The notes beneath the pieces are model-generated. The model had not been told where the DNA came from and ran no database searches. It saw only the letters and a program-made list of their open reading frames with translations. 64,000 nt of DNA from Candidatus Babeliales bacterium (GTDB lineage: Bacteria; Babelota; Babeliae; Babelales; JACPOV01), in contig JBFWNW010000001.1 of assembly GCA_050250855.1 (NCBI GenBank), forward strand, positions 192,001 to 256,000, read 5' to 3'. Made by a program: the position numbers and the translations under genes. Position 1 is the stretch's first letter; every line of letters starts with the position of its first letter. Positions 43,550-61,001 of the stretch are shown here, piece by piece.

Positions 43550-44862
43550 TGATCCTTTTGCGAAATTTCAAGAATATTTTTGCAATTTCTGAATTGCGAA
43601 AGAAAGTGTTTTTTACTCTTGGTTCGCTTATCATTTATAGATTGGGAACGTATATACCGGTTATAGGAGTTAATGTTCCTATGCTGGGTGAACATATGAA
43701 GCGAGCTACGGGTGTAGGTGGCTTATTGGGTTATCTTGATATTTTTTCTGGTGGAGCATTGAGTAAATCAACCCTTTTTGCTCTTGGTATTATGCCGTAT
43801 ATTACGGCTTCTATCATGATGCAAATTTTGAGTATGACTTTGCCTTCTTTAGAGCAATTGCTCAAGGAAGGGGAATACGGTAAAAAGATTATCAATCAAT
43901 ATACACGCTACTTGGCTTTAGGGTTAAGTGTTATGTATAGCTACTGGTATTCTGTATATATAGAGAATGCTAATTTAGCATTAACTCCAGGATGGAGTTT
44001 TCGCTTTATTTTTGTTCTTTCTATGACCGTAGGTTGCTTGCTTGTCATGTGGCTTGCTGATCAAATTTCTTTGTTTGGCGTAGGCAATGGTAGTTCTATG
44101 ATTATCTTTGCTGGTATTGTTTCCAGAATTCCTGGTTATATTATTCAGACAAGGGAACTTGTTCAATTAGGAACGCTACAGCTTTGGCAAGCACTCTTTA
44201 TACTTTTCATATTTATTATTATTACAGGGTTTATTGTTTTCCTGGAAAAGGGAGAACGAAAAATTCCTGTACAATATGCAAGAAGAGTTATAGGAAACAG
44301 GGTCTATGGAGGGCAAAGTACCTATATTCCTTTTAAAATTAACACAGCGGGAATTATGCCGGTTATTTTTGCTTCTCAATTTTTGCAATTTCCTGCAACA
44401 ATTTCTGTTTTGCTATCACAGCGAGCAGAGATCTTTCGATGGATTTCTGAATTGCTGAAGCCTACAGGACTATTTTTTAATTGTTTGGAATTTGGTTTAA
44501 TTGTATTTTTTTCTTATTTTTATACTATGCTGGTGTTTAATCCAGAAGAACTTGCAGATAATATTAAGAAAAGCGGTGGCTTTATACCTGGTATTAGACC
44601 GGGTAAAAAAACGGCTGAATTTTTCTATTATATTTTGATCCGCATAGGTCTTGTAGGTGCCATTTATCTAGCAGGGTTGGCGTTAATGCCGAATATTCTG
44701 TATGCATTATTCCGTATGCCTCCTTTTATAGGCGGAACTTCATTGCTTATTGTTACAGGGGTAGCCTTAGAGCTTTCTGCGCAAGTTGAATCGTATTTAA
44801 TTGAGCATCGCTATGAAGGGTTTTTAACATCTGGCAGGATGAAGGGAAGGATTGCTCGGTGA
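43549..44862 (+). CDS. secY: preprotein translocase SecY
   Basis: LGIMPYITASI, GNGSS.IIFAGI, RKIPVQY, GFIPGIRPG, GGTSLLI. Confidence 0.98.
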   Translation: MILLRNFKNIFAISELRKKVFFTLGSLIIYRLGTYIPVIGVNVPMLGEHMKRATGVGGLLGYLDIFSGGALSKSTLFALGIMPYITASIMMQILSMTLPSLEQLLKEGEYGKKIINQYTRYLALGLSVMYSYWYSVYIENANLALTPGWSFRFIFVLSMTVGCLLVMWLADQISLFGVGNGSSMIIFAGIVSRIPGYIIQTRELVQLGTLQLWQALFILFIFIIITGFIVFLEKGERKIPVQYARRVIGNRVYGGQSTYIPFKINTAGIMPVIFASQFLQFPATISVLLSQRAEIFRWISELLKPTGLFFNCLEFGLIVFFSYFYTMLVFNPEELADNIKKSGGFIPGIRPGKKTAEFFYYILIRIGLVGAIYLAGLALMPNILYALFRMPPFIGGTSLLIVTGVALELSAQVESYLIEHRYEGFLTSGRMKGRIAR

Positions 44863-45548
44863 GTACAGCATCAGGTAAGAAACAACTTGTAGTTTTTATA
44901 GGCCCTCCGGGTTCAGGTAAAGGGTCGCTCTCTCAGCTTTGTGTCCAAAATTTTGGATGGAAGCAGCTCTCTACAGGGTATCTCTGTAGAAAGCATATTA
45001 ATGAGCAAACAGAAATAGGCCAGCAGATAGATTTTTCTATTAAATCTGGTAAGCTGGTTTCTGATAGCCTCATCGTGCGTATGGTTGAGGAGTGGCTCAT
45101 AGAGCCTTCTTTAGAGGTGCCTCATATTATTCTTGATGGCTTTCCTCGTAACGTGTCTCAGGCTGAGGCGCTTCATGCCATGATTGTTGAGAAACTTTCT
45201 GATTTTCAATTGACAGTTTTTAAATTTTTTGTGTCAGATGAGGTTGTTGCAAGAAGGCTTTTGACTCGATTTATTTGTGAAAATAAAGATTGTCAGGCTG
45301 TATATTCAGATCAAGCTGGAGGAGTAAATCCGAAGGTTTCTGGCGTTTGCGATTATTGTTCTTCATGTCTTGTTAAGCGCAATGATGATGAGGAGCAAAC
45401 AATTATTAATCGTCTAAAAACGTATAGAATGCATGAGCATGAGCTGATAAGTTTTTATAAAACAAGAGGGTTGCCAGTTAATGAAATAGACGCGGAAAGA
45501 TCTCTAGAAGGCGTCTTTAAGATTTTTAAAAATATGGTATTTGGATAG
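44859..45548 (+). CDS. adk: adenylate kinase (Cys-containing LID)
   Basis: GPPGSGKG, LSTG, G.LVSD, LDGFPR, C..C..CDYC LID, RNDD. Confidence 0.95.
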   Translation: MSTASGKKQLVVFIGPPGSGKGSLSQLCVQNFGWKQLSTGYLCRKHINEQTEIGQQIDFSIKSGKLVSDSLIVRMVEEWLIEPSLEVPHIILDGFPRNVSQAEALHAMIVEKLSDFQLTVFKFFVSDEVVARRLLTRFICENKDCQAVYSDQAGGVNPKVSGVCDYCSSCLVKRNDDEEQTIINRLKTYRMHEHELISFYKTRGLPVNEIDAERSLEGVFKIFKNMVFG

Positions 45549-45554
45549 AGCAAT

Positions 45555-46322
45555 ATGATCATTATAAAAAATAAATTATCAATTCAAAAAATGCATCAAG
45601 CAGGTCAAAAACTTGCTGATTTATTTGATGCAATTGGTAAGCATATTGTTCCAGGAACAACAACATTACAGCTTGATTCTTGGATAGAAGCAGAATTAAA
45701 AAAACAAGGTCTTGTTTCTCAATCTAAGGGTTACAAAGGATACAGGCATGCAAGTTGCATTTCTGTGAACGATGAGGTTGTACATGGAGTTCCTGGTAAT
45801 ACCACTATTAAACAAGGTGATCTTGTAAAAGTTGATATTTGTGCTTCATGGAAGGGATATTGTGCTGACGCTGCCCGTTGCTATGTAGTTGGTGATGTCA
45901 GTGGTGATATTAAAAAGTTGATTGAAGCTGCTCAGAAGGCTTTGGATAAAGGTATTGAAAAAGCTGTGCCAGGCAATAGACTTTCAGATATTTCTGCGAG
46001 CATTCAACAGGAAGTAGAAAAGCATGGTTTTGGCGTAGTAAGAGATTTTGCAGGGCACGGTATAGGAAAAGTTATGCATGAAGAGCCTGAAATTTTAAAT
46101 TATGGCCAACCTGGCAAAGGTCCTGTTTTGCGTGCTGGTATGACTTTAGCTATAGAACCCATGATTACTATGGGGCATTATGCTGTATATGTAACACAAG
46201 ATGGATGGACAGTGAAAACAAAGGATAAAAGCTTGGCAGCACACGTAGAAGATACAATTGTTATTACAGAGAAAGGTCCCCAGGTTTTGACTAGAAAAAG
46301 TAATCAAGTGGGGGTAGAGTAG
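45555..46322 (+). CDS. map: methionine aminopeptidase type I
   Basis: [32 protein letters not shown]. Confidence 0.97.
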
Positions 46323-46323
46323 T

Positions 46324-46551
46324 ATGACACAAAAAAAAGAAGAAGTTATACGCATAGATGGTATTGTTAAAGAAACGTTACCGAACGCTATGTTTCGCGT
46401 AGAAATAGAGGGCGGGCATATAGTTTTGGGACATGTTTCGGGCAAAATGCGTATGCACTATATTAAAATTTTGCCTGGAGATAAGGTTGCACTTGAGCTT
46501 TCACCTTATGATTTAAAGCGTGGAAGAATTGTGCATCGCTATAAAAGTTAA
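46324..46551 (+). CDS. infA: translation initiation factor IF-1
   Basis: [23 protein letters not shown]. Confidence 0.97.
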
Positions 46552-46569
46552 GCATAATTGAGGGATATC

Positions 46570-46686
46570 ATGAAAGTTCGTACATCGGTAAAAAAAATTT
46601 GTAAAGATTGTCGTGTTGTGCGCCGCAAAAACATTGTAAGAATTATTTGCGACAAAAACCCACGACATAAGCAACGCCAAGGCTAA
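46570..46686 (+). CDS. rpmJ: 50S ribosomal protein L36 (not in ORF track)
   Basis: Hand translation [38 protein letters not shown]. Confidence 0.97.
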
Positions 46687-46702
46687 TTAGAGGATATAAA
46701 AA

Positions 46703-47092
46703 ATGGCACGTATAGAAGGTGTTAATTTACCAATCAATAAACGTATAGAGTATGGCCTAACTTATATTTTTGGTATAGGTCTAAAAAATTCACGCGATAT
46801 TTTAAATAAAGTAAAAATTGATTTGAATAAGCGTGTGAGAGATCTTTCAAATCAGGAAGTTACTTCCATTCAGAAAGAAATTACTCAAAATTATAAAGTT
46901 GAAGGTGAGCTTCGTAAAGAAGTTACCGGCAACATTAGACGTTTGCAGGAAATTGGTTCTTATAGAGGATTGCGCCATAAAAAAGGGCTTCCTTCTAGAG
47001 GACAAAGAACTAAAACGAATGCTCGTACTCGTAAGGGTCCTCGTAAAGCTGGTGGAGCTATTGCTCTTAAGAAAAAAGCTACACTAAAATAA
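46703..47092 (+). CDS. rpsM: 30S ribosomal protein S13
   Basis: [26 protein letters not shown]. Confidence 0.98.
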
Positions 47093-47137
47093 GTGCAATA
47101 AGCAGTTATTGTTTATGAATAAGGGTTAAAGGAAACA

Positions 47138-47521
47138 ATGTCTTACAAGAAGAAAACAAAAAAAGTTAAACGACATATAAATTCTGCTGTTGCGCATGTG
47201 AAATCTTCGTTTAACAATACATTAGTAACAATTACTACTACCGGTGGTGATGTTTTATTAAGTGGCAGCGCAGGAAGATTAGGATTTAAAGGATCTCGTA
47301 AGGGAACTCCTTTCGCTGCAACACAGGTAGGTTCTACATTAGCTAAAGATATGCAGCTGATGGGAATAAAGGATGTAGAAGTGAATTTACAAGGCCCTGG
47401 CTCTGCACGTGATTCTGTTGTAAGAGCTTTGCAGGCTTCAGGATTCAATATTACTGTATTGCGTGATGTTACTCCTCTGCCGCATAATGGTTGTCGTCCA
47501 GCCAAAAAGCGTAGAGTTTAA
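47138..47521 (+). CDS. rpsK: 30S ribosomal protein S11
   Basis: SFNNT, GFKGSRK.TPFAA, DVTPLPHNGCRP. Confidence 0.98.
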   Translation: MSYKKKTKKVKRHINSAVAHVKSSFNNTLVTITTTGGDVLLSGSAGRLGFKGSRKGTPFAATQVGSTLAKDMQLMGIKDVEVNLQGPGSARDSVVRALQASGFNITVLRDVTPLPHNGCRPAKKRRV

Positions 47522-47560
47522 ATTTTATAAAAATTAATATCGGTTTTTGATAAGGGTATT

Positions 47561-48109
47561 ATGAACAACGTTGAAAAAGTTAAAAAAGAAGAGCGTGGCG
47601 CTGCCAAGCGAGGAAAAAAGCTTTCTGAATATGGAAGGCAACTTGCAGAAAAGCAGAAAGTTAAAGAAATGTATGGCATGAGAGAGCGTCAATTTAAGCG
47701 CTTTTTTAAAATAGCTGAACAAAGCGAAGAAGCGACAGGAAGCATGCTTTTAAGCTTGCTTGAGCGTCGTCTTGATAATGTTGTATATCGCTTGAAATTA
47801 GCAACTACGCGTACACAATCTCGTCAAATTATTGTCCATGGACATATTTTGGTTAATGGCAAAAAAGTTTATTCTCCTTCCTATTTGGTTTCTATTAATG
47901 ATGTTATTTCGTTAATGCCTAATGTGTTGGAAAAAACAGTTTTCCTTGAGCAAGTTATTGATAAGCGTATGAAAGTTGGCATTAAAGTACCAGAATGGCT
48001 CGAACTTGATAAAAAAGATCGTAAAGGAAAGATTTTGCGTTTTCCTGTCCGTACCGATATCCAAGTTCCTATCGAAGACCACTTGATTGTTGAGCTTTAT
48101 TCTAAGTAA
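47561..48109 (+). CDS. rpsD: 30S ribosomal protein S4 (N-terminally short)
   Basis: [36 protein letters not shown]. Confidence 0.96.
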
Positions 48110-48168
48110 AAGTAATTTTTTATTGTTTTTTAATTTTTTAAGCATTGAGTATACGGGTAGGGAGGACC

Positions 48169-49215
48169 ATGGACAAGAAGGAGTATAAACCTTTAACTAT
48201 TCCGCGTTTAACGTGGAATAAAAAACAGCTAACAGAGCGCTATGGTGAGTTAGTAGCTCAACCATTGGAGCCTGGTTTTGGCATTACCCTAGGAAATGCG
48301 ATTCGTCGTATTTTATTGGGTGGTGTAGAAGGATCTGCTGTTACATCGGTTGTTATTAAAGGTGTTAATAACGAATTTACGGCGCTACAGGGCGTTAAAG
48401 AAGATACTATGCATGTGCTTCTTAATATTAAGCAACTTGTTATTCGTAATAAGGATGGCTTACCTGGAACCATGCATCTAAAAGTAAAAGGTGAAGCAAC
48501 CGTAACGGGTGCTGACATACAAGCTGATGATCATTTGGAAATTGTAAATCCAGATCACGTTATTGCACATGTTGCAGCTGGCGGTGAGCTTGATATTACT
48601 TTTTTTGTAGAAGCTGGTCGAGGATACAGAGCATCTCAATGGCCTGAGGGTAAACCATTACAGGAAGACCAAAGAATTTATCTTGATGCAATGTTTTCTC
48701 CTGTTCGTCAAGTTTCTTTTGATGTGGAAAAAACACGTGTTGGTAAAGAAATTGATTATGATAAATTGACGATTAAGGTGCATACGGATGGTGCTGAAAC
48801 GCCTCTTGATGTTATGCATTATGCAGTCTCAGTTTTAAGAACCCAACTTGAGCATTTCTTGGCAAGCACAGAAATCCCTTTTAATGAAATTTCTGCAATG
48901 CCAGAAGAAATAAAAGAAGAAAAACCTGTTCAAGCAATTGATCTAGGGCTTAAAGATGTTTCTCCTGAATTCTTATTGAAACCTATCGATGAGTTAGAGC
49001 TTTCTGTACGTGCACATAATTGTTTAATTAGTGCTGATAAAAAACGTATTATTGATCTAGTAAATCTTACAGAAGATGAAGGTCTTAGAATCAAAAACTT
49101 TGGTAGAAAGTCATTGAATGAGGTTAAAGAAAGCTTAAAAGCGTTTGGGCTTTCTCTCGGTATGAATATAGCTGAAGAAGATGTAAAAAGGCTTGTCAAA
49201 ACGATAGAAGAATAA
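48169..49215 (+). CDS. rpoA: RNA polymerase alpha subunit
   Basis: PLEPGFGITLGNAIRR, DAMFSPV, LELSVRA.NCL, NFGRKSL; GGAGG before ATG 48169. Confidence 0.98.
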   Translation: MDKKEYKPLTIPRLTWNKKQLTERYGELVAQPLEPGFGITLGNAIRRILLGGVEGSAVTSVVIKGVNNEFTALQGVKEDTMHVLLNIKQLVIRNKDGLPGTMHLKVKGEATVTGADIQADDHLEIVNPDHVIAHVAAGGELDITFFVEAGRGYRASQWPEGKPLQEDQRIYLDAMFSPVRQVSFDVEKTRVGKEIDYDKLTIKVHTDGAETPLDVMHYAVSVLRTQLEHFLASTEIPFNEISAMPEEIKEEKPVQAIDLGLKDVSPEFLLKPIDELELSVRAHNCLISADKKRIIDLVNLTEDEGLRIKNFGRKSLNEVKESLKAFGLSLGMNIAEEDVKRLVKTIEE

Positions 49216-49238
49216 GCATATTGCTTTAAGGTAAAATT

Positions 49239-49595
49239 ATGAATCATCAAATTGGTAGAAAAAAATTAAACATAAAACCTTCACACAGAAGATCTTTGTT
49301 ACGTAATCAAGTAATGCTTTTGATTGAGAATGGCCATTTGGTAACAACAAAAGTACGTGTTAAGGAAGTACAAAAATTAGCTGAGCGTTTGGTTACTATT
49401 GCTCGCGAGGGGAATGTTTTTAATGCTCGTCGCAGAGCAAAAATGTTGCTCCCTTATAAAGATGAAGCTCTTACAAAATTGTTTGTAGATATAGCACCTC
49501 GCTATACTGATCGTCAAGGCGGTTATACGCGTGTTATTCCTATGGGCCGTCGCGTGAGTGATACAGCAACTATAGCTCGTCTTGAATGGGTTTAA
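49239..49595 (+). CDS. rplQ: 50S ribosomal protein L17
   Basis: HR..LLRN, R.GGYTR, R.SD.A. Confidence 0.96.
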   Translation: MNHQIGRKKLNIKPSHRRSLLRNQVMLLIENGHLVTTKVRVKEVQKLAERLVTIAREGNVFNARRRAKMLLPYKDEALTKLFVDIAPRYTDRQGGYTRVIPMGRRVSDTATIARLEWV

Positions 49596-49621
49596 AACCT
49601 ATAAAAGCTTGTAATAATTTT

Positions 49622-49655
49622 ATGGAGCACTAAAAACAGTGCTCCATTTTTTTTT
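49622..49655 (+). terminator. intrinsic terminator of the ribosomal superoperon
   Basis: ATGGAGCACT-AAAAAC-AGTGCTCCAT + T-run. Confidence 0.88.
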
Positions 49656-49675
49656 ATTTTAATATGGAGGATTTT

Positions 49676-49969
49676 ATGAAATCATTACAATATTTAGTAA
49701 TCATGGTAGGTTTTATTTTTCTGCAATCTTTTTGTATGGAGCCAGAAAGCGTTGCAATGCAAGAAAGAGAATCTAGGCATAACCCAGATGATTTAGAAAA
49801 GTACTTTAATTCTTTTAATTTAGCCAGAAAAGCTCAATCAACATTATGTTCAAAAATAGGTTGTTTTCCAACAGCACGTCAGATTAGCAATGTTCCTTTG
49901 CTTGCCTGTTTTATGACTTCCAACTTAGAAAAACATGTTCAAAAAATTATAAATCAGAAAAATAAATAG
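49676..49969 (+). CDS. small secreted hypothetical protein
   Basis: GGAGG RBS; MKSLQYLVIMVGFIFLQSFC-ME signal peptide. Confidence 0.65.
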   Translation: MKSLQYLVIMVGFIFLQSFCMEPESVAMQERESRHNPDDLEKYFNSFNLARKAQSTLCSKIGCFPTARQISNVPLLACFMTSNLEKHVQKIINQKNK

Positions 49970-49990
49970 ATTATTTATAGATAAAAGATG

Positions 49991-50022
49991 AAAGGCAGGA
50001 AAGAACTTCTTTCCTGCCTTTT
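49991..50022. terminator. bidirectional terminator-like hairpin
   Basis: Perfect 14-bp stem AAAGGCAGGAAAGA-ACT-TCTTTCCTGCCTTT between convergent genes. Confidence 0.85.
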
Positions 50023-50031
50023 GTTTTAAAA

Positions 50032-51789
50032 TTACGGTGTTATAACGGTTACAGCTTCAGGAGTAATGCGAATACGTTGACCATTACCTTTTGTTAATAC
50101 AAATCCTGTAAAGCCACTTTCATGATAAATACGTCCAAAATCTTGAAGATATTTAATAGCGATAGCTTCACCAAGATCATTTCCTTGTTGAGTTTCAGAG
50201 CGATAATGTACGCCAGCAAAATTTCTTGCTTGTCCAACATTGGCTGCAATTTTATCAAGCTCGCCACCAACTGTTAATAGATTTGCACCTTCACCAACGG
50301 TAAGAGCAATAAGTTGTGTTGGATCTGCAGGATCTGGTTTCATTGGGGTAACAAAGCTTGAAATAAGAGCTTGATCATCAAAGAATGCTTTTATAATTGT
50401 TTTGCAAGATCCGGCAACAGTAGAATGTCCTTGAGGATATGATGGATGTAAAGGAGATCCTTCAGGAAATAATAAAGCAAGAAGATATGTGTTAACTGAT
50501 TGTCCTGTGTAAAAGCCTGCTTGCAGTTGATTTGTTGCACGTACCCAGTCAAGCAAGTTCACTGTTCCAGCTGGTGTGGTATAGCTTGCAAAGAGTGATG
50601 CGTCAAGATTGTAAGGATTTGATGCTGAAGTTTGTGCATTATGAACAAGGCCTGCCATTGCTTCAGGACGTAGTCTGCGATTACCCAGCCATTTATGCGC
50701 CCATGCATTTTTGAATGCTTCTTCCATGGCGCCGCCAATAGCATTATAAATATCGCCTACGAGGAAGGTAACAAAACCTTCTTCGTTTGGTGCCGAGCCG
50801 TTTGAGTAAGGCAGTACGGGTGAAAGTGGTGCTCCGTAGAAAAGAAGAATATTAGTAATGAAGTTGCAAAAGTCTACCGGAGAATCCATATGTACCGTTG
50901 TTCCAGCATCTTTACCACAGATGATTAAACGTTGGCCGCTAAAATCACTTGGTTGGTACGGTTTTGGAACATTGCCATTTTGTATCTCTACAAAATCTTC
51001 AAAAGAAACCCCGAATTGTCGGTTCTGCGCAATAGGGATATATTGATTTTGCACGATGTCAGCTTGAAACACACGATGATTTGGTAGAAACCAAAATTGT
51101 GAGATATAAGGCCCTACCAAGTTTCCTGCATCATTGCCTCTAAAAAGCTCAGCGGCTGTTACGGTGCCATTATTAGAAGGTCCTTTGTAAGCACTACCAA
51201 GGGCGGTCAAAATTGCTGCAGCATTATTTGTTAATGAGCCACCATTGATAGTATCTACATCGGTGTTGGCACCAGTCCCATAATCTTCAAAATTTACGCT
51301 ACGGCAGATCATTTGCAAATAGACTTCAATCATATCCGCAGCTGCTTCTGCGCTTGAAAGATTAAATGCTAGAGGCATAGGAGTGATCATGGCCGGCGTA
51401 CCAACTAAGCTACGAGCAAAAGCTGATTGAGGATTTACAAACTTTCTTCCACCAGCACGTTGAATAGCATTGAAATCTTCTTGCAGGCCGCTATAAAGCG
51501 CTGTTAGCAAGCGTTGGTAATTCAGTTGACCATTTGCTGTTAATAATCCTGTAGCAGCATCATGCTCTAGGCCTTTGGTAAATGATCCTGCATAGGCAGC
51601 TAGATCGTCATCGCCGTTGTGTTCATTGTAAATGTCGTAATTTGGCTGTTGAAGACATTCTTTGTTTGCAGCAAATACGCGGCAATTATAATTATTAGTT
51701 TTTGGATTTTTTATAATAGAAAACATTGAGTCTTCTTGAGCATAGATACCTAATGCAACAAAAAAACTTATATAAAAAAGTTTTTTCAT
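50032..51789 (-). CDS. secreted vanadium-dependent haloperoxidase (bromoperoxidase-like)
   Basis: Signal peptide; NGD..., SFTKGLEH, RKFVNPQ, GPYISQF, AW..KW...RRLRPEA, EGSPLHPSYPQGH, RNFAGVHY. Confidence 0.9.
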   Translation of the reverse strand: MKKLFYISFFVALGIYAQEDSMFSIIKNPKTNNYNCRVFAANKECLQQPNYDIYNEHNGDDDLAAYAGSFTKGLEHDAATGLLTANGQLNYQRLLTALYSGLQEDFNAIQRAGGRKFVNPQSAFARSLVGTPAMITPMPLAFNLSSAEAAADMIEVYLQMICRSVNFEDYGTGANTDVDTINGGSLTNNAAAILTALGSAYKGPSNNGTVTAAELFRGNDAGNLVGPYISQFWFLPNHRVFQADIVQNQYIPIAQNRQFGVSFEDFVEIQNGNVPKPYQPSDFSGQRLIICGKDAGTTVHMDSPVDFCNFITNILLFYGAPLSPVLPYSNGSAPNEEGFVTFLVGDIYNAIGGAMEEAFKNAWAHKWLGNRRLRPEAMAGLVHNAQTSASNPYNLDASLFASYTTPAGTVNLLDWVRATNQLQAGFYTGQSVNTYLLALLFPEGSPLHPSYPQGHSTVAGSCKTIIKAFFDDQALISSFVTPMKPDPADPTQLIALTVGEGANLLTVGGELDKIAANVGQARNFAGVHYRSETQQGNDLGEAIAIKYLQDFGRIYHESGFTGFVLTKGNGQRIRITPEAVTVITP

Positions 51790-51807
51790 AAAATTTCCTT
51801 CTTTTGG

Positions 51808-53442
51808 TTAGAAGCTAATTCCAAATTTACCCCACACAAGCCAACGATCAAGCCCTGTATTCATAGTATGTGAAAATTCATAAGAACCACCAAATCCTGC
51901 AAATACTGGATAGCAAAGGTTATCCCAATGGTAGCCGAATGCTGAATAAATGGTGTGGCTCATAACACATGGATGAGCTGCCGAAGATAGATCGATATCA
52001 TCTTCGGTTATTATGCCGCGTCCATAAGCATTGGTAATATCTTGTGGATTAAATGGTGTTGTTAGGATAAGGTTTGCGATACTTGCTTCATTAAGTAATA
52101 GATCTGCTGTTATGTTACGCACAGGATTCGTGATTCCCATGCCAGTGCTATCTTTTATTGCAGCCTCAGAACCAAAACGTTTTTTTAATGATACACATTC
52201 GGCTTGGCGAGCAAAGAAGTTATAACCCCATTCTGCTTCAAAGCCGTTGCAAGCTGGGCTTCCTTTTAGAACAATTGCCATATTATTAGTGAAATTAAAA
52301 CCTGGTTTTACCGAAGCATCTTGGGTAAGGGTATTAATGCCAGGAGATGAAAGGAATATTGATTGTAAAAGATTTGTGTTGGCAAGATTTAAAGCCTGTG
52401 TTGCTTGTGCCTGATTCTCATAGAGCTCAATATAGCGAGACCATGGTTTATATTTTAAATCAAAGGAACGTTTTTCTCTTGTTTTAAAGAGATATTGCAT
52501 AACAAGTGTATTTTCAAGACTTAGTTGTAAATCATTATTGCAATTTTGCCATAAGACATAACCACCATTGCCGCCCCAAAGTGTACCAAAATGACCACCA
52601 TTACCAGCAATTGCTTCAAATACATATTCACTTTTTACTTTATTGCCAGTAGGGAATGTTGCACCGATAAAAGGTTCAAAATAATAACATTCATTTGAGG
52701 CCCATTTCATGCCAACTTGAAGCTGAATAAAAGCAAGCTTTGTTGTTTTATGAATTTTGTTATCAATTTTGCCATAGTTCCAGTCGCTTTGAACCAAAGC
52801 TTCGGTCATATTTTTTAAATTTTGATTTAAGTTTGTTGTTTCTCCAGCGATTGGTTGTACTTCATAGAGTGCGGTGTTGGTAACAATTTCTTGTAATCCC
52901 ATAGTGTTGCGCACATGTAAAACTGGGGCTGAAATGCCATACCAGAACCAATGTTCACCAAGATAACGTTCTTGCTGCCAGCTAAAACCAAAACCAACAA
53001 CAGACTGCTGTGGATTTAGAGTAACTAAACTTTCAAATGCAGGTAATGGAAGCGTTGGAATGCTTAAGAAACTGCTAATAAATGGACTAAATTCTATACT
53101 AAAAATATTGAAGTTTTGCGGCAGAACATTTTTACTATTAATAGCTATAGTTCCATCAACAGGAATTTCATTTGAGCAATAAGGGGCAAAGAAGGTGCCT
53201 AAATGAGCTTTATTGGTTGATTTGCCACCAAACACAACTCCTTGAAATGCACCGTCAATGCCACATTCACGGGCAGTTCTTCTGTTGCGAGCCAGTGATT
53301 CATACTCAGGAGACCCGATTTGAAACTGTGGTCGCACGGTAAAGAAGGTTTGACTTGTTGCTTTACAACTACAATTATGGTCTGCAATAGTGGTTCCTAT
53401 AGCAGAAAGTAGTAAAAGGACGGAAGAAAGTTTTTTCTTCAT
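51808..53442 (-). CDS. Cys-rich putative outer-membrane beta-barrel protein
   Basis: Signal peptide, amphipathic aromatic beta-strands, C-terminal WLVWGKFGISF beta-signal, 10 Cys. Confidence 0.7.
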   Translation of the reverse strand: MKKKLSSVLLLLSAIGTTIADHNCSCKATSQTFFTVRPQFQIGSPEYESLARNRRTARECGIDGAFQGVVFGGKSTNKAHLGTFFAPYCSNEIPVDGTIAINSKNVLPQNFNIFSIEFSPFISSFLSIPTLPLPAFESLVTLNPQQSVVGFGFSWQQERYLGEHWFWYGISAPVLHVRNTMGLQEIVTNTALYEVQPIAGETTNLNQNLKNMTEALVQSDWNYGKIDNKIHKTTKLAFIQLQVGMKWASNECYYFEPFIGATFPTGNKVKSEYVFEAIAGNGGHFGTLWGGNGGYVLWQNCNNDLQLSLENTLVMQYLFKTREKRSFDLKYKPWSRYIELYENQAQATQALNLANTNLLQSIFLSSPGINTLTQDASVKPGFNFTNNMAIVLKGSPACNGFEAEWGYNFFARQAECVSLKKRFGSEAAIKDSTGMGITNPVRNITADLLLNEASIANLILTTPFNPQDITNAYGRGIITEDDIDLSSAAHPCVMSHTIYSAFGYHWDNLCYPVFAGFGGSYEFSHTMNTGLDRWLVWGKFGISF

Positions 53443-53530
53443 ACATCACTCTCCTTTAAAAGTGGATTTAAGATTCTCTCATTACTAACTTGTATCCCAC
53501 TTTTAAAAAAAAGCCAACCTTTTTTACGTT

Positions 53531-56242
53531 TTATCCTTGCTCTATGACTGTAACAAAAGAACCTTGTGTCGCTTTATTGACAAAGAAATGTACCGGGAAT
53601 TGATCTTTCATGGTAGGTAAGTGAGAAACAATAATTACTTTCGCAAAATTGTCTTGGATTTTTAAAATGGCATCCATGATATGGTTTAAGCCTTCTTCGT
53701 CTTGAGAGCCAAAGCCTTCATCAATAATAAGAGTTTGTAATGAAGTTCCAGCTCTGCGTGCAAGTAGTTTTGAAATAGCAATACGTAGTGCAAAATCTAT
53801 ACGGAAAGCTTCACCGCCAGAAAAAAGCTCATAAGGTCGAATGCCCATAGGGTCAGATATTTTGATATCAAGCGTTTCTTTAGTGCCGCCTTTTTTAAGG
53901 TCACGGAGAGATTCAATAATAATATGTGCTTGATTGTTAGTTAGTTCTGCCAGTAAATTATTTGCTTCATATTCTATTTCTGGAAGCGCATCTTCTATGA
54001 GTAGTGCTTGCACGCCATCTTTTGATAATGCCGTTGCTAAAATAGCATAATCATGATGCGTCGCAATAAGAGATTCTATGGTTTTTTGATGTTCTTTATA
54101 TTCTGTTTTCTGCTTTTGAATCGTTTTTTGTTCTTGCTCAAGACTTCCTTTTTTGTGTACTAAAGCTTCTTTGTTTTTTTTGAGTGCTTCAGTATTTGTA
54201 TGAAGTTCCTGTTCTTTGTGCAGGAGTGTATTTTTTTGTTCATCTAGGTGTATTGCTTTGAGTGCATCTTCTTTTTGGCGTATATCTTTTTTGTGGATTT
54301 TGAATTCTGCACACGCTTTGAAAAAATCTTTTTTGCGTTCTTCTTGTTGGCTTATCTGATGAAGAGATGTTAGCAATTCTTCCTCTTGCGCTGTTAATGC
54401 TTGCAGAAGATCTATAGCCTTTTTATGTTCTTCACTCTTATAGTTAAGAGCTTTGGTTTCTTCAATAATATCCTGTATTACTTTTTTTTGTTGCTTATAT
54501 GTTTCATGCTGCTCCAGGGATAGCGGTAAAGCAGTTTCTTCTGTGCTGATAATTTGCTTTAAAGCTTCATATTCTTGTTTGAGCGCGGTGATTAAAGTAG
54601 TAAATTCTTGTTCTTTTGTACTTAGAGCAGTGATCTCTTGCCGTTTGGCCGCTTCTTTTTTCTGCAATTCTTTCAAACGTAGTGTTATAATTTGTGTACT
54701 TTCTTTAGTGCTGCGCATTGATTCAATCTGTTTGTGCTGTTCTACTAAAAGTTCTTTTAGTTTGGGTAGAATGTGTGAAAATCTTTTGAATTGATGGCGA
54801 AGCGTTTGCTCCTGTTTTGCAAATTGCGCTTTTAAAAATTTTTTACGTGAAGCAGAAAGATTTTGTTCGCACAAAGGGCAGCTAGGATTGTGAGGATCTT
54901 GAATGAATCCCTTCTTTTGCTCAAGTTCTTTGAGCGTGCTATTGACTATATTTGCACGAGCAACCCACGTATGATAAAAATATTTTCTTTTTTCAAACTG
55001 CTTTTCAAGAGCAGGATCTTCAGCTTTGTGTAAAGCAAGCGTAGCTTTAAGTTCTTCTTGCTCTTTACTATAAGCTTCGAGTTCTTTTTTAGAGAGTACG
55101 GTTTGGGTGCCAATGGTTTGCAGAGTTTCTTCTTGGTGTTTTATGGTGCTTGCAAGGCGTTCGGCAGCAAGTTGTTTTTTATGAATTTCTTGCAAATATT
55201 GTTCTTTAAACTGAGCAATTATTGTTTGTTCTCGCTCTTTTTCTTGCAGATAAAGTTCTTTAAATGCTAAAAGTTCACTTTGTTTTGCTGAATATTCATC
55301 CGCTTTTTTAGCTACGTTACTTTTTTCAGTTTTTATCTGCTCAAGAGAGGGAAGTTGTTTTTGTTTTTTGTGCACTGAGCGCCACGTAGTAAAGTTTTTG
55401 AGAAGCTCTTCTTCTATTTTTTTTTGTTCTTTTCTTTGTTGTTCAAGTTCATACGTTTTACGAGCACGTTCTTGTTCTTTTCCTGCAAGAACAATTTTTT
55501 CTTGTTCTAGGTTTTGTTGTTGCTGATGTAGATTTTTTTCTTGCAAAGCGATTTGTTCTAACTCAGAAGAAACTTTTTTGAGTTCTTCTTCTAAGACAGG
55601 TTCATGGGCTACATCCTGTGCCAAACGTTCTTGCAATTGCTTTAAATGCTCACTATCTTGCACGGCTTGTTTAGCTTTATCAAGAGCAGCTTTGCGAATT
55701 GATTCATACGTATCAAGTTGCAAAATAGATGCTAAAATTTCTTTACGTTCTTTTGGTGATTTTTTTGAAAATTCATTAGCTTGTCCTTGGCGCAAGAATG
55801 CTGTATTAACAAACGTTTCAAAGCTCAGGCCAAGCATTTTTTCAATAGTTTCTTGTGTGCCGCGTATCGTTTTTTCTGTTAAAGGTTTGAGCGTATCTGT
55901 TTCTTGTTCAAGTACACCAAATTCTAACGAGGCATAAGGGTTACCATTGCGCGTTAAGGCAAATTCACGACGTACGCGATAGGTTTGATTATTAAAATAA
56001 AAATCGAATATGACAAGCATGCTCGTTTGGCCTAAACGCAAAAGTTGAGCATCTGGCTTGAGTGTTCCTGTTGTTTTACGCGCTTGTCCCCAGAGCGCCC
56101 AGGTCATGGCATCAAGCAGAGCAGATTTGCCATGTCCATTTTTGCCACTCAAACAAATAAGCGGATAATTACCGAAATTGATTTCTTGAAGTTGCGAGCC
56201 GTAACTTAAAAAGTTTTTAATCTGTAGTTTTAAAGGAATCAT
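53531..56242 (-). CDS. sbcC: SbcC/Rad50 SMC-family ATPase
   Basis: NFLSY, GKNGHGKS, QGQ Q-loop, CPLC zinc hook, FSGGE, IIDEGFG, SH. Confidence 0.92.
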   Translation of the reverse strand: MIPLKLQIKNFLSYGSQLQEINFGNYPLICLSGKNGHGKSALLDAMTWALWGQARKTTGTLKPDAQLLRLGQTSMLVIFDFYFNNQTYRVRREFALTRNGNPYASLEFGVLEQETDTLKPLTEKTIRGTQETIEKMLGLSFETFVNTAFLRQGQANEFSKKSPKERKEILASILQLDTYESIRKAALDKAKQAVQDSEHLKQLQERLAQDVAHEPVLEEELKKVSSELEQIALQEKNLHQQQQNLEQEKIVLAGKEQERARKTYELEQQRKEQKKIEEELLKNFTTWRSVHKKQKQLPSLEQIKTEKSNVAKKADEYSAKQSELLAFKELYLQEKEREQTIIAQFKEQYLQEIHKKQLAAERLASTIKHQEETLQTIGTQTVLSKKELEAYSKEQEELKATLALHKAEDPALEKQFEKRKYFYHTWVARANIVNSTLKELEQKKGFIQDPHNPSCPLCEQNLSASRKKFLKAQFAKQEQTLRHQFKRFSHILPKLKELLVEQHKQIESMRSTKESTQIITLRLKELQKKEAAKRQEITALSTKEQEFTTLITALKQEYEALKQIISTEETALPLSLEQHETYKQQKKVIQDIIEETKALNYKSEEHKKAIDLLQALTAQEEELLTSLHQISQQEERKKDFFKACAEFKIHKKDIRQKEDALKAIHLDEQKNTLLHKEQELHTNTEALKKNKEALVHKKGSLEQEQKTIQKQKTEYKEHQKTIESLIATHHDYAILATALSKDGVQALLIEDALPEIEYEANNLLAELTNNQAHIIIESLRDLKKGGTKETLDIKISDPMGIRPYELFSGGEAFRIDFALRIAISKLLARRAGTSLQTLIIDEGFGSQDEEGLNHIMDAILKIQDNFAKVIIVSHLPTMKDQFPVHFFVNKATQGSFVTVIEQG

Positions 56243-56298
56243 AATGCTGACCTATATTTTTTCTTTTAGTGTATAGGTAAGATTATGATTTAACAAAT

Positions 56299-57000
56299 TT
56301 AACTTTTTTTTAGAAGATTACTGACTTCATCTTTTGAAAGTAAGCGCCACATGCCGGGCTTGAGCCCTTTTTTTGTTAAGCCAGCAAAGCGTATGCGGTC
56401 AAGTTTTTTTACGTCATAATCAAGCTCTGCAAAGAGACGACGAATGACCCGTTTTTTGCCGCTGTGGAGGGTAACGAATACAATCGCTTTATTTTTAGGA
56501 TCATCTTTGAGACTATCAACTTTAATAAGTCCATCTCTTAACCTGATTCCTTTTTTTATCATACTTTTGTGTTCAGATAAAAGCGGCTTATCAAGAGTGA
56601 CTTCGTATACTTTTTGTATGCCGTGGCGCGGGTGGCCAAGATCTTGTGCTAACTGGCCATCATTGGTCAGTACTATTAATCCGGTAGTGTCACGATCTAA
56701 GCGCCCAATAGAAAAAAGACGTTTTTTTTGTGCCAAAGGGATAAGTTCAAAAATTGTTTTTCTACCAAATTCATCATCCGTAGAACTTACATATCCTTTT
56801 GGTTTGTTTAAAAGAATGTATGTTTTTTCTTCAACTTTAATAAGTTTGCCATTGAACTTAACAGAATCTTTAGGTTGTACTTTATAGGTAGGTTCACTGA
56901 CAATAACACCATTAACCGTAACAAGCTCATCTTTAATAAGCTCAACCGCTTTTCTACGAGAACAAATGCCTGCTTGTGCAAGGTAATGGTTTAAAAACAT
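56299..57000 (-). CDS. rRNA pseudouridine synthase (RluB/RsuA family)
   Basis: S4 domain (GICSRRKA), LNKPKG, GRLDRDTTGL, G.KR.IRR. Confidence 0.93.
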   Translation of the reverse strand: MFLNHYLAQAGICSRRKAVELIKDELVTVNGVIVSEPTYKVQPKDSVKFNGKLIKVEEKTYILLNKPKGYVSSTDDEFGRKTIFELIPLAQKKRLFSIGRLDRDTTGLIVLTNDGQLAQDLGHPRHGIQKVYEVTLDKPLLSEHKSMIKKGIRLRDGLIKVDSLKDDPKNKAIVFVTLHSGKKRVIRRLFAELDYDVKKLDRIRFAGLTKKGLKPGMWRLLSKDEVSNLLKKS

Positions 57001-57002
57001 TG

Positions 57003-57578
57003 TTATGAAGCCTTTTCAGTATTTTTTTGTTCTATTAAATCGTATATTTTTTGTATGTAGCTATTATCAGGGTATTGATTAGCAAGATTAATAACTTTTG
57101 TGGTTATATTATTAGAAATGGGCAAATCATTATTTTTAATAATTTTTTCAAAATCTTCATATTCATTTTTTCCAATGTATTCTTCTTTTTCAAGAATGCG
57201 ATACAAGACCCCTTCAAATGCTTCTGGATTTAATTGATTTTTCCAATCGCATTGCTTTTCTTTGTGCGTAAAGCCAAGGAATTTTTTTTCTTCACAATGC
57301 TTAATTAATGCTTTTACATAGTTAGGTAAAGCCGGATCATAAGGATTGTTATTGATAATTTGTACTAAGCCGTCTTTAGTTTGATCGGCATTGATTTTAT
57401 TTTGCGCATGGAGGCCTAGCAATGCTGCTGGCTGTTTTCCTTTTATTGCTTCTTTTTGTCTTGTCTCAGAATTAAGATGCAGCGGTTTGTTTTCTGAGTC
57501 CGAACTCCAAGGGTTATACCATGAACATTGAACGGATGTTGAAAAAAGCATAATAAACACTAAAAGATGATTTTTCAT
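57003..57578 (-). CDS. secreted hypothetical protein
   Basis: Signal peptide MKNHLLVFIMLFSTSVQC; GAAGGA RBS. Confidence 0.7.
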   Translation of the reverse strand: MKNHLLVFIMLFSTSVQCSWYNPWSSDSENKPLHLNSETRQKEAIKGKQPAALLGLHAQNKINADQTKDGLVQIINNNPYDPALPNYVKALIKHCEEKKFLGFTHKEKQCDWKNQLNPEAFEGVLYRILEKEEYIGKNEYEDFEKIIKNNDLPISNNITTKVINLANQYPDNSYIQKIYDLIEQKNTEKAS

Positions 57579-57746
57579 AGATAGTCCTTCAAGCTGAAAT
57601 ATTCTTTATTGAGAGCTATTTTTATAGTGTCTTTAAGAATTCCAAAGATCGCCTTATTTGTCAAGGTAATGTAGCATGATAAGAAGCATACAGTTGTTAT
57701 TTTTAGTATACTGTATTACAGTTTTTTTGAAAGGTAAGGAGACATT

Positions 57747-59141
57747 ATGCAAGACCATATTTTTCGGCAATATGATATTCGGGGTAAAGTAGGGCAAGAG
57801 CTTCTCTTAGATCAGGTCTATGATTTGGCTAAAGCTATTGTTTATTATTTTGTACAAAAGAATCCTGCACTCAAAACCATAGCAGTTGGTGCTGATGGCA
57901 GAACCCATTCGCCGGCCATCAAGCAAGAACTTTGTCGAGCGCTGCAGGATAGTGGTATTGATGTACTTTTTGTAGGTACCTGCCCAACGCCTGTTTTGTA
58001 TTTTTCTCTGTTTAATCTGCCCGTAGATGCGGGGCTTATGATTACCGCTTCCCATAATGGTAAAGAATATAATGGGATTAAAATCTGTTTGGGTAAAGAA
58101 TCGGTATGGGGAAGTCAGATTCAGGAAATAAAAGCTTTATATGCTCAAAAAGCTGCGGTTAAGGCTGAGCATAGGGGCTCCTATAAAGAATATAATCTTA
58201 TTGAAGATTACACTGATTGGATGGTCAAAAAATTCCCTCATTTAGTAAATATGGACATTGCTGCCGTTGTTGATTGTGGTAATGGTGCAGCTGGAACCGT
58301 GTGGCCCATGCTTATTAAAAAAATGCAGTGGAAGAAGGTAGATTTACTCTTTCCTGAAGTTGATGGCACCTACCCAAATCATGAAGCCGACCCTATTGTT
58401 GAAGAAAATATGCTAGATGTAAAAAAAAACCTTCTTTCTGGTTGCTATGATGTTGGCTTGGGGCTTGATGGGGATTGCGATCGCATGACGCCCATGACCA
58501 AACAGGGGCAGCTGGTGCAAGGAGATAAAGTTTTAGCTCTTTTTGCCCAAGATATTATTAAAAATCATCCCAAAGCACCAATTGTTTTTGATATTAAATG
58601 TTCATCCGGCCTTGCGGACGTTATTGCTGCCGTTGGTGGTCTTCCTTGTATTTCCCCTTCCGGACATTCTATTATTAAAGATCAAATGAAAAAGCAAAAA
58701 GCATTATTGGCCGGTGAATTAAGCTGCCACTTTTTTTTCCATGATCGCTACTTTGGGTACGATGATGGCAACTATGCAGCGCTGCGCCTTTTTGAGCTTC
58801 TCGTTCAATCTGGTAAAACGCTGCAAGAACTATTGACTATTTTTCCCGAAAAATGGAGTACGCCGGAAATTCGCATAGCGTGCGACCAGCATGCCATGGC
58901 GTCTATTGTTGAGCATGTCAAAGAGCACTTTATAAAAGAGGCAAAAGGAGAGATAATGACAATTGATGGAATTCGCGTTACGATGAGCTATGGATGGGGC
59001 ATGGTGCGTTCATCAAACACGCAGCCAGTTATATGTTTAAGGTTTGAATCTGATAGTCAGGCAGGATTGCAGCAGATCAAACAAGATTTTAAGGGTGCTT
59101 TAGAACCATATTTAAGTAAAGAAGCATTGATGCACTTATAG
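57747..59141 (+). CDS. phosphomannomutase/phosphoglucomutase
   Basis: IFRQYDIRG, ITASHN, DGDCDR, GELSCH, R.SNTQP. Confidence 0.94.
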   Translation: MQDHIFRQYDIRGKVGQELLLDQVYDLAKAIVYYFVQKNPALKTIAVGADGRTHSPAIKQELCRALQDSGIDVLFVGTCPTPVLYFSLFNLPVDAGLMITASHNGKEYNGIKICLGKESVWGSQIQEIKALYAQKAAVKAEHRGSYKEYNLIEDYTDWMVKKFPHLVNMDIAAVVDCGNGAAGTVWPMLIKKMQWKKVDLLFPEVDGTYPNHEADPIVEENMLDVKKNLLSGCYDVGLGLDGDCDRMTPMTKQGQLVQGDKVLALFAQDIIKNHPKAPIVFDIKCSSGLADVIAAVGGLPCISPSGHSIIKDQMKKQKALLAGELSCHFFFHDRYFGYDDGNYAALRLFELLVQSGKTLQELLTIFPEKWSTPEIRIACDQHAMASIVEHVKEHFIKEAKGEIMTIDGIRVTMSYGWGMVRSSNTQPVICLRFESDSQAGLQQIKQDFKGALEPYLSKEALMHL

Positions 59142-59151
59142 AGTTATTGTC

Positions 59152-59988
59152 ATGAGAACGATTGGTTTACATTTGCGTATTTTTTCTGATTTGGTGGCAA
59201 CAGCACATCAGGCGCTTGCTTTGCAATTGCCAACGTTCCAATGTTTTTTAATGTATCAAGAAACAAAAAGACCACTGAGACCTAGTCAGAAAAATATTCA
59301 ACAATTTCTTGTATTACGCCAACAGTTCAAGGAGCTTTTTGTTCATGGTTCTTATTGGATAAACTTGTGTGGCGTTAATGCAGAAAAAAGCTTACATGTT
59401 CTTAAGAAAGAGCTTGATGTAGCAAAACGATGTGGTTTTTCTCATTACATTTTACACCCAGGTTCTTCGAATGGTCTTTATGAACGAGAAAAAGGCATTG
59501 AATGCTTGATTAGTACGCTGAATAATCTTACTGACCATGAGCAAGATATTACTATCGTTCTAGAAAATACGGCTCATGGAGGCATGAGTGTTGGCGGTGA
59601 TTTTGCAGATTTTGTTTATATTCTAGAGCGTCTTGATTATCCAGAGCGTATTAAGTTTTGTTTAGATACGGCACATGCTTATGCATTTGGCTATGATATT
59701 GTAACGGCACGAGAAGATTTTTTTAAACGTATAGAGCAAACAATAGGATTTTCATCATTGGCAGTTATACATTTGAATGATACGCAAGAGTCTCTCGGGT
59801 TAAAGCGAGATAGGCATGAAGCGCCTGGTCAAGGTAATATCGGTATTGAAGCATTGCAAGCTATTGCCATGGATGAACGGTTGAAGCATATTCCATTAAT
59901 TTTGGAAACGCCGCAATGTTCGCTTGAAGAACAAAAAAGTATTATAGCATTAATACATGGTTGGCATGAAAATAAGGAGAAAGAGTGA
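59152..59988 (+). CDS. nfo: endonuclease IV
   Basis: HGSY.INL, HPG, ENTA, DTAH, HLND, DRH, ETP metal ligands. Confidence 0.93.
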   Translation: MRTIGLHLRIFSDLVATAHQALALQLPTFQCFLMYQETKRPLRPSQKNIQQFLVLRQQFKELFVHGSYWINLCGVNAEKSLHVLKKELDVAKRCGFSHYILHPGSSNGLYEREKGIECLISTLNNLTDHEQDITIVLENTAHGGMSVGGDFADFVYILERLDYPERIKFCLDTAHAYAFGYDIVTAREDFFKRIEQTIGFSSLAVIHLNDTQESLGLKRDRHEAPGQGNIGIEALQAIAMDERLKHIPLILETPQCSLEEQKSIIALIHGWHENKEKE

Positions 59989-61001
59989 GAATAGCAATTA
60001 ATGGTTTTGGAAGAATAGGAAAAAATTTTTTACGCACTATTATGCTTGATCCAGCAGCATTGCATGGACTTGACGTTGCTGTTATTAATATTGGTCCGGC
60101 AGATAAAGAGTATGTAGGTCTTTTTTTTAAGTACGACACTATTATGGGCCATTATCCAGGGACCGTGGAGCAAAGAGGTTCTACCTTAATTATCGATGGT
60201 AAATCAATAGAAATTATACAAGAACTAGATCCATTACAATGTCCTTGGAAAAAAATGTCGATTGATTGGGTAGTTGATTGTTCGGGTAAATTTACCACGC
60301 GCGCAGGAGCAGAAAAGCATTTGAAAGCGGGAGCAGGTGCAGTACTTATTTCAGCGCCAGCAAAGGATGAAGATATTTCTATTGTTCCTGGTGTTAATGA
60401 ATCACTATATAAAAAAAGTAATCATAAAATAGTTTCTCTTGGCAGTTGTACAACCAATGCATTTTGCACCATGCTTAAAGTATTGCATGATGAACTTACT
60501 GTTGAATCTGGTTATATGACAACCGTGCACTCGTACACAAACTCGCAAGCATTGCTTGATCTTCCTATGGACGCTAAAGATCCACGGCGTTCACGCGCTG
60601 CTGCTCTTAATATTGTGCCGACATCGACGGGTGCTGCAAGAATGGTAGATATTATTTTTCCTGAATTGAAAGGAAAAATAAATGCATCGGCAGTGCGCGT
60701 TCCAGTCGGCAATGTTTCTCTGGTAGATTTTGTTTTTTCTGCTAAAAAAAATGCGTCAGTCAAGCAGTTGAATGATCTGTTTATGCTGGCAGCAACAACA
60801 TCGCTTAAAGGTATTGTTGATGTGGCAACCGAACCATTAGTTTCTAGTGATTTTATTGGCGATGCCGCTTCTGTTATTATTGATACGCTTTCAACAAGCG
60901 CGAATGGACCATTAATGCATGTTGCAGGATGGTATGATAATGAATGGGGTTACAGCTCTCGCATGAAAGATTTTTTACTTTTTATTAAAGGAATGGCATG
61001 A
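59985..61001 (+). CDS. gap: glyceraldehyde-3-phosphate dehydrogenase type I
   Basis: INGFGRIG, SCTTN, RVPV, WYDNEWGY. Confidence 0.96.
   Translation: MRIAINGFGRIGKNFLRTIMLDPAALHGLDVAVINIGPADKEYVGLFFKYDTIMGHYPGTVEQRGSTLIIDGKSIEIIQELDPLQCPWKKMSIDWVVDCSGKFTTRAGAEKHLKAGAGAVLISAPAKDEDISIVPGVNESLYKKSNHKIVSLGSCTTNAFCTMLKVLHDELTVESGYMTTVHSYTNSQALLDLPMDAKDPRRSRAAALNIVPTSTGAARMVDIIFPELKGKINASAVRVPVGNVSLVDFVFSAKKNASVKQLNDLFMLAATTSLKGIVDVATEPLVSSDFIGDAASVIIDTLSTSANGPLMHVAGWYDNEWGYSSRMKDFLLFIKGMA

Follow-up and report, generated by a model that had tools for sequence, protein, structure and literature searches.

A barrel and haloperoxidase gene pair in a Babeliales genome

The stretch of DNA analysed here (the window, 64,000 nucleotides (nt), positions 192,001 to 256,000 of contig JBFWNW010000001.1, assembly GCA_050250855.1 of a Candidatus Babeliales bacterium) carries on its minus strand two consecutive open reading frames (ORFs), i.e., a gene of 544 amino acids (aa) ending in a C-terminal Phe (51808..53442), whose predicted product is an outer-membrane barrel that we call barrel A, and a gene of 585 aa (50032..51789) encoding a homologue of vanadium-dependent haloperoxidases (VHPOs). 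Both products have signal-peptide-like N-termini, and both genes are preceded by Shine-Dalgarno-like sites, that of the barrel gene at 53451..53456 (minus strand) and that of the VHPO gene within the 18-nt spacer between the two (51790..51807). Upstream, 88 nt separate the barrel gene from sbcC, a gap in which a sigma-70-like site was looked for and none was found. On the 3' side of the VHPO gene a 14-pair hairpin with a T-run (50021-49991, minus strand) resembles an intrinsic terminator closing the two-gene unit, with the proviso that promoter-like and terminator-like counts are overall the same as in shuffled sequence. We infer from this layout that both genes form one transcription unit. 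The surroundings are of housekeeping type (sbcC and, by reading of the ORFs, a ribosomal/rpoA-rplQ block), and the ORFs at 44000-60000 show no sign of a biosynthetic cluster. In all these respects the measurements agree with a preliminary description of the locus, which had reported two co-oriented signal-peptide genes 18 bp apart with an upstream region of about 90 bp and a strong terminator, set among housekeeping genes without a biosynthetic cluster. A recent foreign insertion of the pair was rejected, as the GC content at third codon positions of the two genes (0.26 and 0.25) lies within that of the genome (0.267 ± 0.041).

An algal/cyanobacterial-type haloperoxidase homologue

Profile searches of Pfam and NCBIfam with both window proteins gave zero matches. 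A phmmer search of the PDB with the enzyme, on the other hand, matched 10 solved bromoperoxidases (best 1qhb, E 2e-46), and its AlphaFold2 (AF2) model (predicted local distance difference test score, pLDDT, 95.1) aligns over the whole length with the solved enzymes of Corallina (1qhb, 1up8, 7qvw), Ascophyllum (1qi9, 5aa6) and Acaryochloris marina (5lpc) at template modelling (TM) scores of 0.76-0.81 (Foldseek E 1e-28 to 1e-31) and 25-27% identity. NapH1-type, fungal and PAP2 phosphatase structures fall far below these, the PAP2 phosphatases at query-normalised TM scores (TMq) of at most 0.20 and E values of at least 0.5, i.e., the model does not have the compact PAP2 fold. The family and the long N-terminal architecture named in the preliminary description are thus borne out.

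The sequence contains the motifs K366-x7-R374P, H448PSYP-Q-G-H455 and R522-x5-H528, and the predicted active-site residues (K366, R374, H448, Q453, G454, H455, R522 and H528) are encoded at 50206..50694 (minus strand). K366, R374, H448, H455, R522 and H528 are invariant in an alignment of 74 close relatives (74/74), and G454 is retained. This K, R, H, H, R, H set is shared with the solved bromoperoxidases, as is the Trp three residues before the Lys (Trp363), which is general in the class (72/72 outside sequences) and has been linked to chlorination (PMC11871015). H448, seven residues before the catalytic His, aligns to a His in 1qhb and 5lpc; such a second His is a bromoperoxidase marker. The vanadate-pocket motifs announced earlier were therefore found, but the unspecified "x" in HPSYPxGH is the position of the SGH-motif Ser, described as a vanadate contact in a fungal enzyme (Ser402 in Curvularia; PMC10278073), and here it is Gln453. 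Among the 74 relatives this column holds Ala (35), Ser (30) or Gln (9), and Gln recurs in scattered lineages (13 of 187 sequences). Since the characterised Acaryochloris enzyme has Ala there, the Ser is not strictly defining for VHPOs and its loss is tolerated; among characterised VHPOs we found no assayed enzyme with Gln. By sequence, then, the second gene is an algal/cyanobacterial-type VHPO homologue of predicted activity in which a single ligand position is non-canonical. It differs from the solved bromoperoxidases in this Gln, in its Sec-type signal, in the outer-membrane barrel gene upstream and in belonging to an intracellular parasite.

A barrel of the COG4313/FapF superfamily

Barrel A has a Sec-type signal peptide, a conserved N-terminal segment (a putative plug) and, in an AF2 model built on 115 sequences (pLDDT 94.9), 12 long strands with ca. 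290 residues in long loops. It gave no match in Pfam (E up to 1), NCBIfam or PDB sequence searches, the PF13557 profile included. By structure, Foldseek placed FapF first (E 5.8e-9) and Pput2725 next, and a wide fold search scored the same two almost equally (FapF Z 23.1, Pput2725 Z 23.0, each with rmsd 2.6; 257 aligned residues), above autotransporters (Z 17-18.5) and FhaC (Z 8.8); Atlas structure clusters with PF13557 match it at TM 0.60. In these fold comparisons the aligned part starts at residues 47-50, ahead of strand 1 and next to the conserved P45/E46 (113/115). The PTG motif described for COG4313/FapF barrels (PMC5557850, PMC4493636) is encoded at 52645..52653 (P264-T265-G266, minus strand) and conserved in the family (P in 111, T in 104 and G in 103 of 115). 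As far as models allow, we consider barrel A a structural member of the COG4313/FapF superfamily that is not part of a Fap system, and the first gene is, as had been proposed, predicted to encode an outer-membrane barrel. Named homologues of both window proteins are mostly labelled Dependentiae or Babeliales, by which the host would belong to the phylum Dependentiae.

Known systems resemble the pair in part. FapF of Pseudomonas (5o65), described as a Sec-fed polypeptide exporter (PMC5557850), shares the 12 strands, the PTG motif and a Sec-delivered partner; barrel A is only 9% identical to it, has far more in its loops, lacks the long N-terminal coiled coil in the model and lies outside any fap operon, with sbcC, the VHPO gene and a small ORF as neighbours instead of fapA-E and a globular enzyme as partner (elsewhere helical or ankyrin proteins). 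COG4313/PF13557 channels (Pput2725 (4rl8), SphA and TcpY; PMC4493636) are alike in fold, PTG cluster and Atlas matches, but barrel A is twice their length, multicopy, phylum-wide and usually placed before non-enzymatic secreted proteins. Type Va autotransporters are also 12-stranded, but the partner of barrel A is unfused. Type Vb two-partner secretion likewise places the gene of a Sec-dependent partner after that of the barrel, but barrel A, with its 12 strands, is not an Omp85/POTRA protein, and an Omp85 family search matched two other genes of the genome and not this one.

Conservation and co-divergence of the pair

Of 261 genomes of the phylum (Dependentiae), 49 were found to carry a VHPO gene, and the flanks of all listed places were read. 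Barrel A lies directly upstream in seven of them, which belong to three families, with gaps of 9-29 nt and changing neighbours; one further genome has a distant barrel A relative in this place (L207), nine have a different, short barrel (barrel B, below) and 32 have no adjacent barrel. The expectation that the pair is conserved is thus supported, although the pairing is not obligate. Barrel A relatives as such are far more widespread, with 2589 representatives at 50% identity, members in 232 of 261 genomes and six copies in the genome of the window.

In a tree of 92 barrels all 17 paired ones (seven with flanks read and ten assigned solely because barrel and enzyme lie on contigs of identical length) fall inside a single clade of 33 tips (support 0.83, core 1.0), 16 of which have unread genomic context. 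None of the 32 barrels without a downstream VHPO (from the loci or the genome itself) falls within it, and L207 lies outside. Distances between barrels and between enzymes correlate (Mantel r 0.87, 16 pairs; 0.78 in the ten length-matched pairs alone). That the paired enzymes also form one clade is not firm (support 0.783), and in a further analysis the two enzymes of family f11 fell at the base of lineage I. Among the matches listed by pattern scans of metagenomes and genomes, most were distant VHPOs, and they were used as outgroup and control only. Some Dependentiae carry tandem duplicated VHPO genes without a barrel (L012, L014/L191). Lineage-I enzymes were also placed by the tree in two Bacteroidetes metagenome-assembled genomes (MAGs; L095, L096), and lineage-I-like ones were seen by eye in two Chlamydiota genomes (L351, L353), in either case by transfer or binning error.

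The paired clade has residues of its own. Strand 4 carries F238 and Q240 (52723..52731, minus strand), lumen-facing as judged from strand alternation, and these positions are Phe and Gln in 29/33 clade members each; outside the clade they are Asp (54/58) and Glu (50/58). By plain counts, 15 of 21 clade-specific positions lie in loops (291 of 544 residues overall), and the long loops are more conserved in the paired clade than in other barrels (0.58 vs 0.47; strands 0.60 vs 0.58). On the enzyme side, the mature N-terminal segment (residues ca. 18-34, 51688..51738, minus strand) shows an aromatic/NP[KR] pattern in 13 of 16 A-paired enzymes (those of the core group) and in none of 34 unpaired or eight B-paired ones. 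The three pairs without it keep Asp/Glu in strand 4, and L179, an unpaired clade member, lacks the pattern. The change from Asp/Glu to Phe/Gln thus tracks the enzyme pattern, a possible hint of recognition that we treat as a lead only.

A second barrel in Dependentiae and Chlamydiota

Phylum VHPOs split into two lineages in a tree from which sequences below 440 aa were left out, and a topology uniting A-paired with B-paired enzymes in one clade was rejected (approximately unbiased test, p-AU 1e-49, on 34 of 187 rows). Barrel B has ca. 250 aa and, by our own count, about 10 strands, is OMP_b-brl-like in 11 of 29 members and falls near OpcA-like clusters; PDB sequence searches with it gave no match. 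Profile comparison of barrels A and B reached a probability of only 10-11%, by which homology is not shown and a remote link is still possible. Within Dependentiae, barrel B occurs in 15/261 genomes, 12 of which have a VHPO (nine adjacent, three unlinked). In Chlamydiota, the phylum of MAG L129, VHPOs were present in 21 of 401 sampled genomes (22 loci), and barrel B lies directly upstream in 19 of the 22 amid varied neighbours; of the remaining three, two end at a contig edge and one has an unrelated upstream gene. In a control set of 150 VHPO loci, most of them from other bacteria, an upstream barrel was found in two, both barrel B, using the A and B profiles plus a check of C-terminal residues, by which other barrel types may be missed. 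Judged from these sequences, the barrel-VHPO partnership arose twice with different barrels, the second being common to Dependentiae and environmental chlamydiae, and such repetition suggests a hitherto undescribed way of exporting, anchoring or supplying these enzymes.

Barrel B and its lineage-II VHPO make up a strictly ordered module that is likewise undescribed (L333-L350 and L354 in Chlamydiota, L129:5225-7596, L039:1074-3625). It is preceded at L129:331-5211 by two genes that resemble pilin genes and one that resembles a gene for a periplasmic chaperone (names by reading). In two lineage-II enzymes unlinked from barrel B (L215 and L216, in G025 and G042) the helix that otherwise comes first behind the signal region is missing.

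What follows the other barrels of family A

We examined 101 barrel genes from 86 loci, the top-scoring part of the family matches. Of the genes that come next, 60 encode soluble proteins with a signal peptide, seven encode proteins without one, eight encode further barrels and two encode VHPOs; the rest are on the opposite strand (16), distant (4) or off the edge (4). The upstream gene is on the opposite strand in 68. When the next gene is co-oriented and neither a barrel nor a VHPO, a signal peptide is present in 60/67. Without two mis-started epimerases the count is 58/67, compared with 169/284, 58/104 and 39/73 (53-60%) in three own-genome controls (p ~2e-5) and 7/14 on the upstream side. 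The signal-peptide calls are heuristic and related genomes are not independent, though the partners share few BLAST hits. These partners are mostly without a Pfam match and mutually unrelated, coiled-coil-like (three are ankyrin proteins), and poor in Cys and aromatic residues. At L228-L313, barrel A paralogues, often in tandem, stand first in units whose secreted partners are varied, Cys-poor and either helical or of the ankyrin type. The reverse order is seen at G000:C4:149264-155477, where a 1459-aa signal-peptide protein precedes a 583-aa barrel-like protein with a weak family A match (E 0.0016).

Cell context

The genome (1.22 Mb, 95% complete) has 437 of 1139 genes that look secreted by a heuristic call, two Omp85 genes, two secretins and one Cu/Zn superoxide dismutase (SOD), the last divergent to a gene for a putative barrel of 313 aa that ends in Phe (G000:C2:272291-273906); catalase, KatG and ketoacyl synthase were looked for and not found in it at this completeness. 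Dependentiae are described as protist parasites with lost fatty-acid synthesis and a Sec-heavy proteome (PMC4776705, PMC6561590), signal-peptide proteins amounting to 44% of coding sequences in Chromulinavorax (PMC6561590). The reduced, protist-parasitic host guessed from the letters alone is therefore supported, as far as the homologue labels and the lifestyle described for the phylum in these two papers go. In a profile search TatC, of the twin-arginine translocation (Tat) system, exceeded the cut-off in 0/261 phylum genomes, and a Tat-like motif is present in 39 of 72 outside bacterial relatives of the enzyme vs two of 58 Dependentiae VHPOs. Because TatC is missing phylum-wide, the enzyme would enter the periplasm unfolded; for the same reason the idea that Sec replaced Tat as an adaptation for threading was rejected.

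Proposed export or tethering of the enzyme, and rival readings

On the basis of what was observed (who the two proteins are and how they fold, the order of their genes, their co-divergence, the recruitment of barrels more than once and the layout found across the family), we consider that barrel A exports the Sec-delivered enzyme or tethers it at the surface, a proposal to which we give an even chance. We rank it first because barrels of the family are usually followed by a secreted protein, the fold is like that of FapF and the paired barrels form a clade of their own that co-diverges with the enzyme. The two Omp85 genes of the genome, its Cu/Zn SOD and the failure to find a catalase or KatG in it fit this proposal too. 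Sec would take both proteins unfolded across the inner membrane (there being no Tat in the phylum) and the barrel assembly machinery (BAM) would insert the barrel, which would serve this one enzyme as its partner in the outer membrane, recognising it, probably through its N-terminal segment, and either handing it to the surface or tethering it there. At the host interface a vanadate-loaded oligomer could turn H2O2 and halide into HOBr or HOI, perhaps HOCl, a surface reaction that would remove peroxide while keeping the reactive product out of the periplasm. More tentatively, and at somewhat less than even chance, we postulate that the multicopy FapF/COG4313-type barrels throughout the phylum are exporters or anchors of one protein cargo each (an undescribed two-partner route), that one subfamily delivers an active VHPO to the interface with the host and that environmental chlamydiae and other Dependentiae have converged on this with another barrel.

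Several observations weigh against export or tethering. Most VHPO genomes of the phylum (32/49) manage without an adjacent barrel, although other members of barrel family A are present in 232/261 genomes. Linkage of the two genes would by itself produce co-divergence as well. The N-terminal pattern was recognised post hoc and amounts to about one evolutionary event. The loss of Tat is a simple explanation for the Sec signal, and the two secretins offer an alternative exit route. FapF, the top fold match, is tied with the importer Pput2725. Barrel B does not look like a known exporter, and its unlinked copies do not precede secreted partners. The enzyme is globular, its solved relatives are oligomeric, and its make-up (Cys 1.1%, aromatic 10.5%, AEKQR 26%) is that of ordinary secreted proteins and unlike that of the other partners, which counts against simple threading. 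Finally, Gln453 may impair vanadate chemistry.

The tie with an importer leads to a serious rival, in our view less probable than export or tethering, in which the enzyme stays in the periplasm and the barrel is a channel that lets vanadate, halide or a hydrophobic substrate in, or product out, the enzyme serving as a peroxide sink or detoxifier fed by the Cu/Zn SOD. It is serious because a shared need for supply accounts for two different barrels more simply than export does; moreover, the PTG motif is a lateral-gate motif, the loss of two apparently lumenal acids in the paired clade would suit anions or hydrophobic solutes, and the genome has SodC while catalase and KatG were not found. However, the rest of family A stands mainly before non-enzymatic helical or ankyrin proteins, which need no substrate channel, and, going by known chemistry, a periplasmic source of hypohalous acid would put the envelope of the cell itself under attack.

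Apo-VHPOs can dephosphorylate, as the title of PDB entry 3bb0 echoes, and the protein could have the VHPO fold and yet work in vivo as a phosphatase, e.g., on host lipid or sugar phosphates arriving via the barrel in a parasite without fatty-acid synthesis. The Gln at the vanadate Ser position, the PAP2 family matches in 56/74 family members, the failure to find a ketoacyl synthase and the report of TM6 as lacking fatty-acid synthesis (PMC4776705) would fit such a role. We nevertheless consider it improbable, as those PAP2 matches cover only the shared active-site motifs, the model has the whole-length bromoperoxidase fold (TM ~0.8) and not that of PAP2 phosphatases, H448 and W363 are kept, the Acaryochloris bromoperoxidase also does without the Ser, and Gln is scattered over lineages. 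Least probable is that a VHPO gene came to lie behind a member of this large barrel family and has merely been carried along since. In favour of this, the barrel family is multicopy, over a third of genes look secreted and most VHPOs are unpaired. Against it, the pair persists over three families amid changing neighbours, the paired barrels are set apart as a clade with characteristic residues, an independent recruitment brought in a second barrel that is kept in 19 of the 22 chlamydial loci, barrel B mostly accompanies a VHPO even when unlinked, and barrels are rare upstream of outside VHPOs.

In the literature searched (which excluded most subscription journals and supplements) we found neither a description of a barrel-VHPO pairing nor a paper joining Dependentiae and haloperoxidases, in line with the preliminary description, which knew of none. 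Its interpretation as a whole, a surface halogenation module acting on host peroxide or on host or envelope components, is partly supported: it stands in the identities, the host and the conserved pair, while halogenation, a surface location and a physical complex are predictions, and quorum quenching and crosslinking are guesses. It did not include that the barrel is one dedicated subfamily of a multicopy family found across the phylum, the unpaired VHPOs or the second VHPO lineage with its different barrel. The pair bears on the question of how Dependentiae move their many signal-peptide proteins beyond the periplasm, for which a barrel-first, partner-second unit would be a concrete, testable route with the VHPO cargo as an ideal reporter (a simple colour assay). 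If our proposal is right, COG4313/FapF barrels would extend from amyloid export and hydrophobic uptake to the handling of a folded oligomeric enzyme, and halogen chemistry would take place inside protist infections by members of two phyla, which would matter for the oxidative defence of the host and for the natural sources of organohalogens. That barrels were recruited twice and independently suggests that exported VHPOs have a requirement which has gone unrecognised.

A further small ORF at the locus (101 aa, 49664-49969, plus strand) is an orphan for which Pfam and NCBIfam searches gave no convincing family match. It has a signal-like N-terminus, is convergent on the VHPO gene and may share its hairpin.

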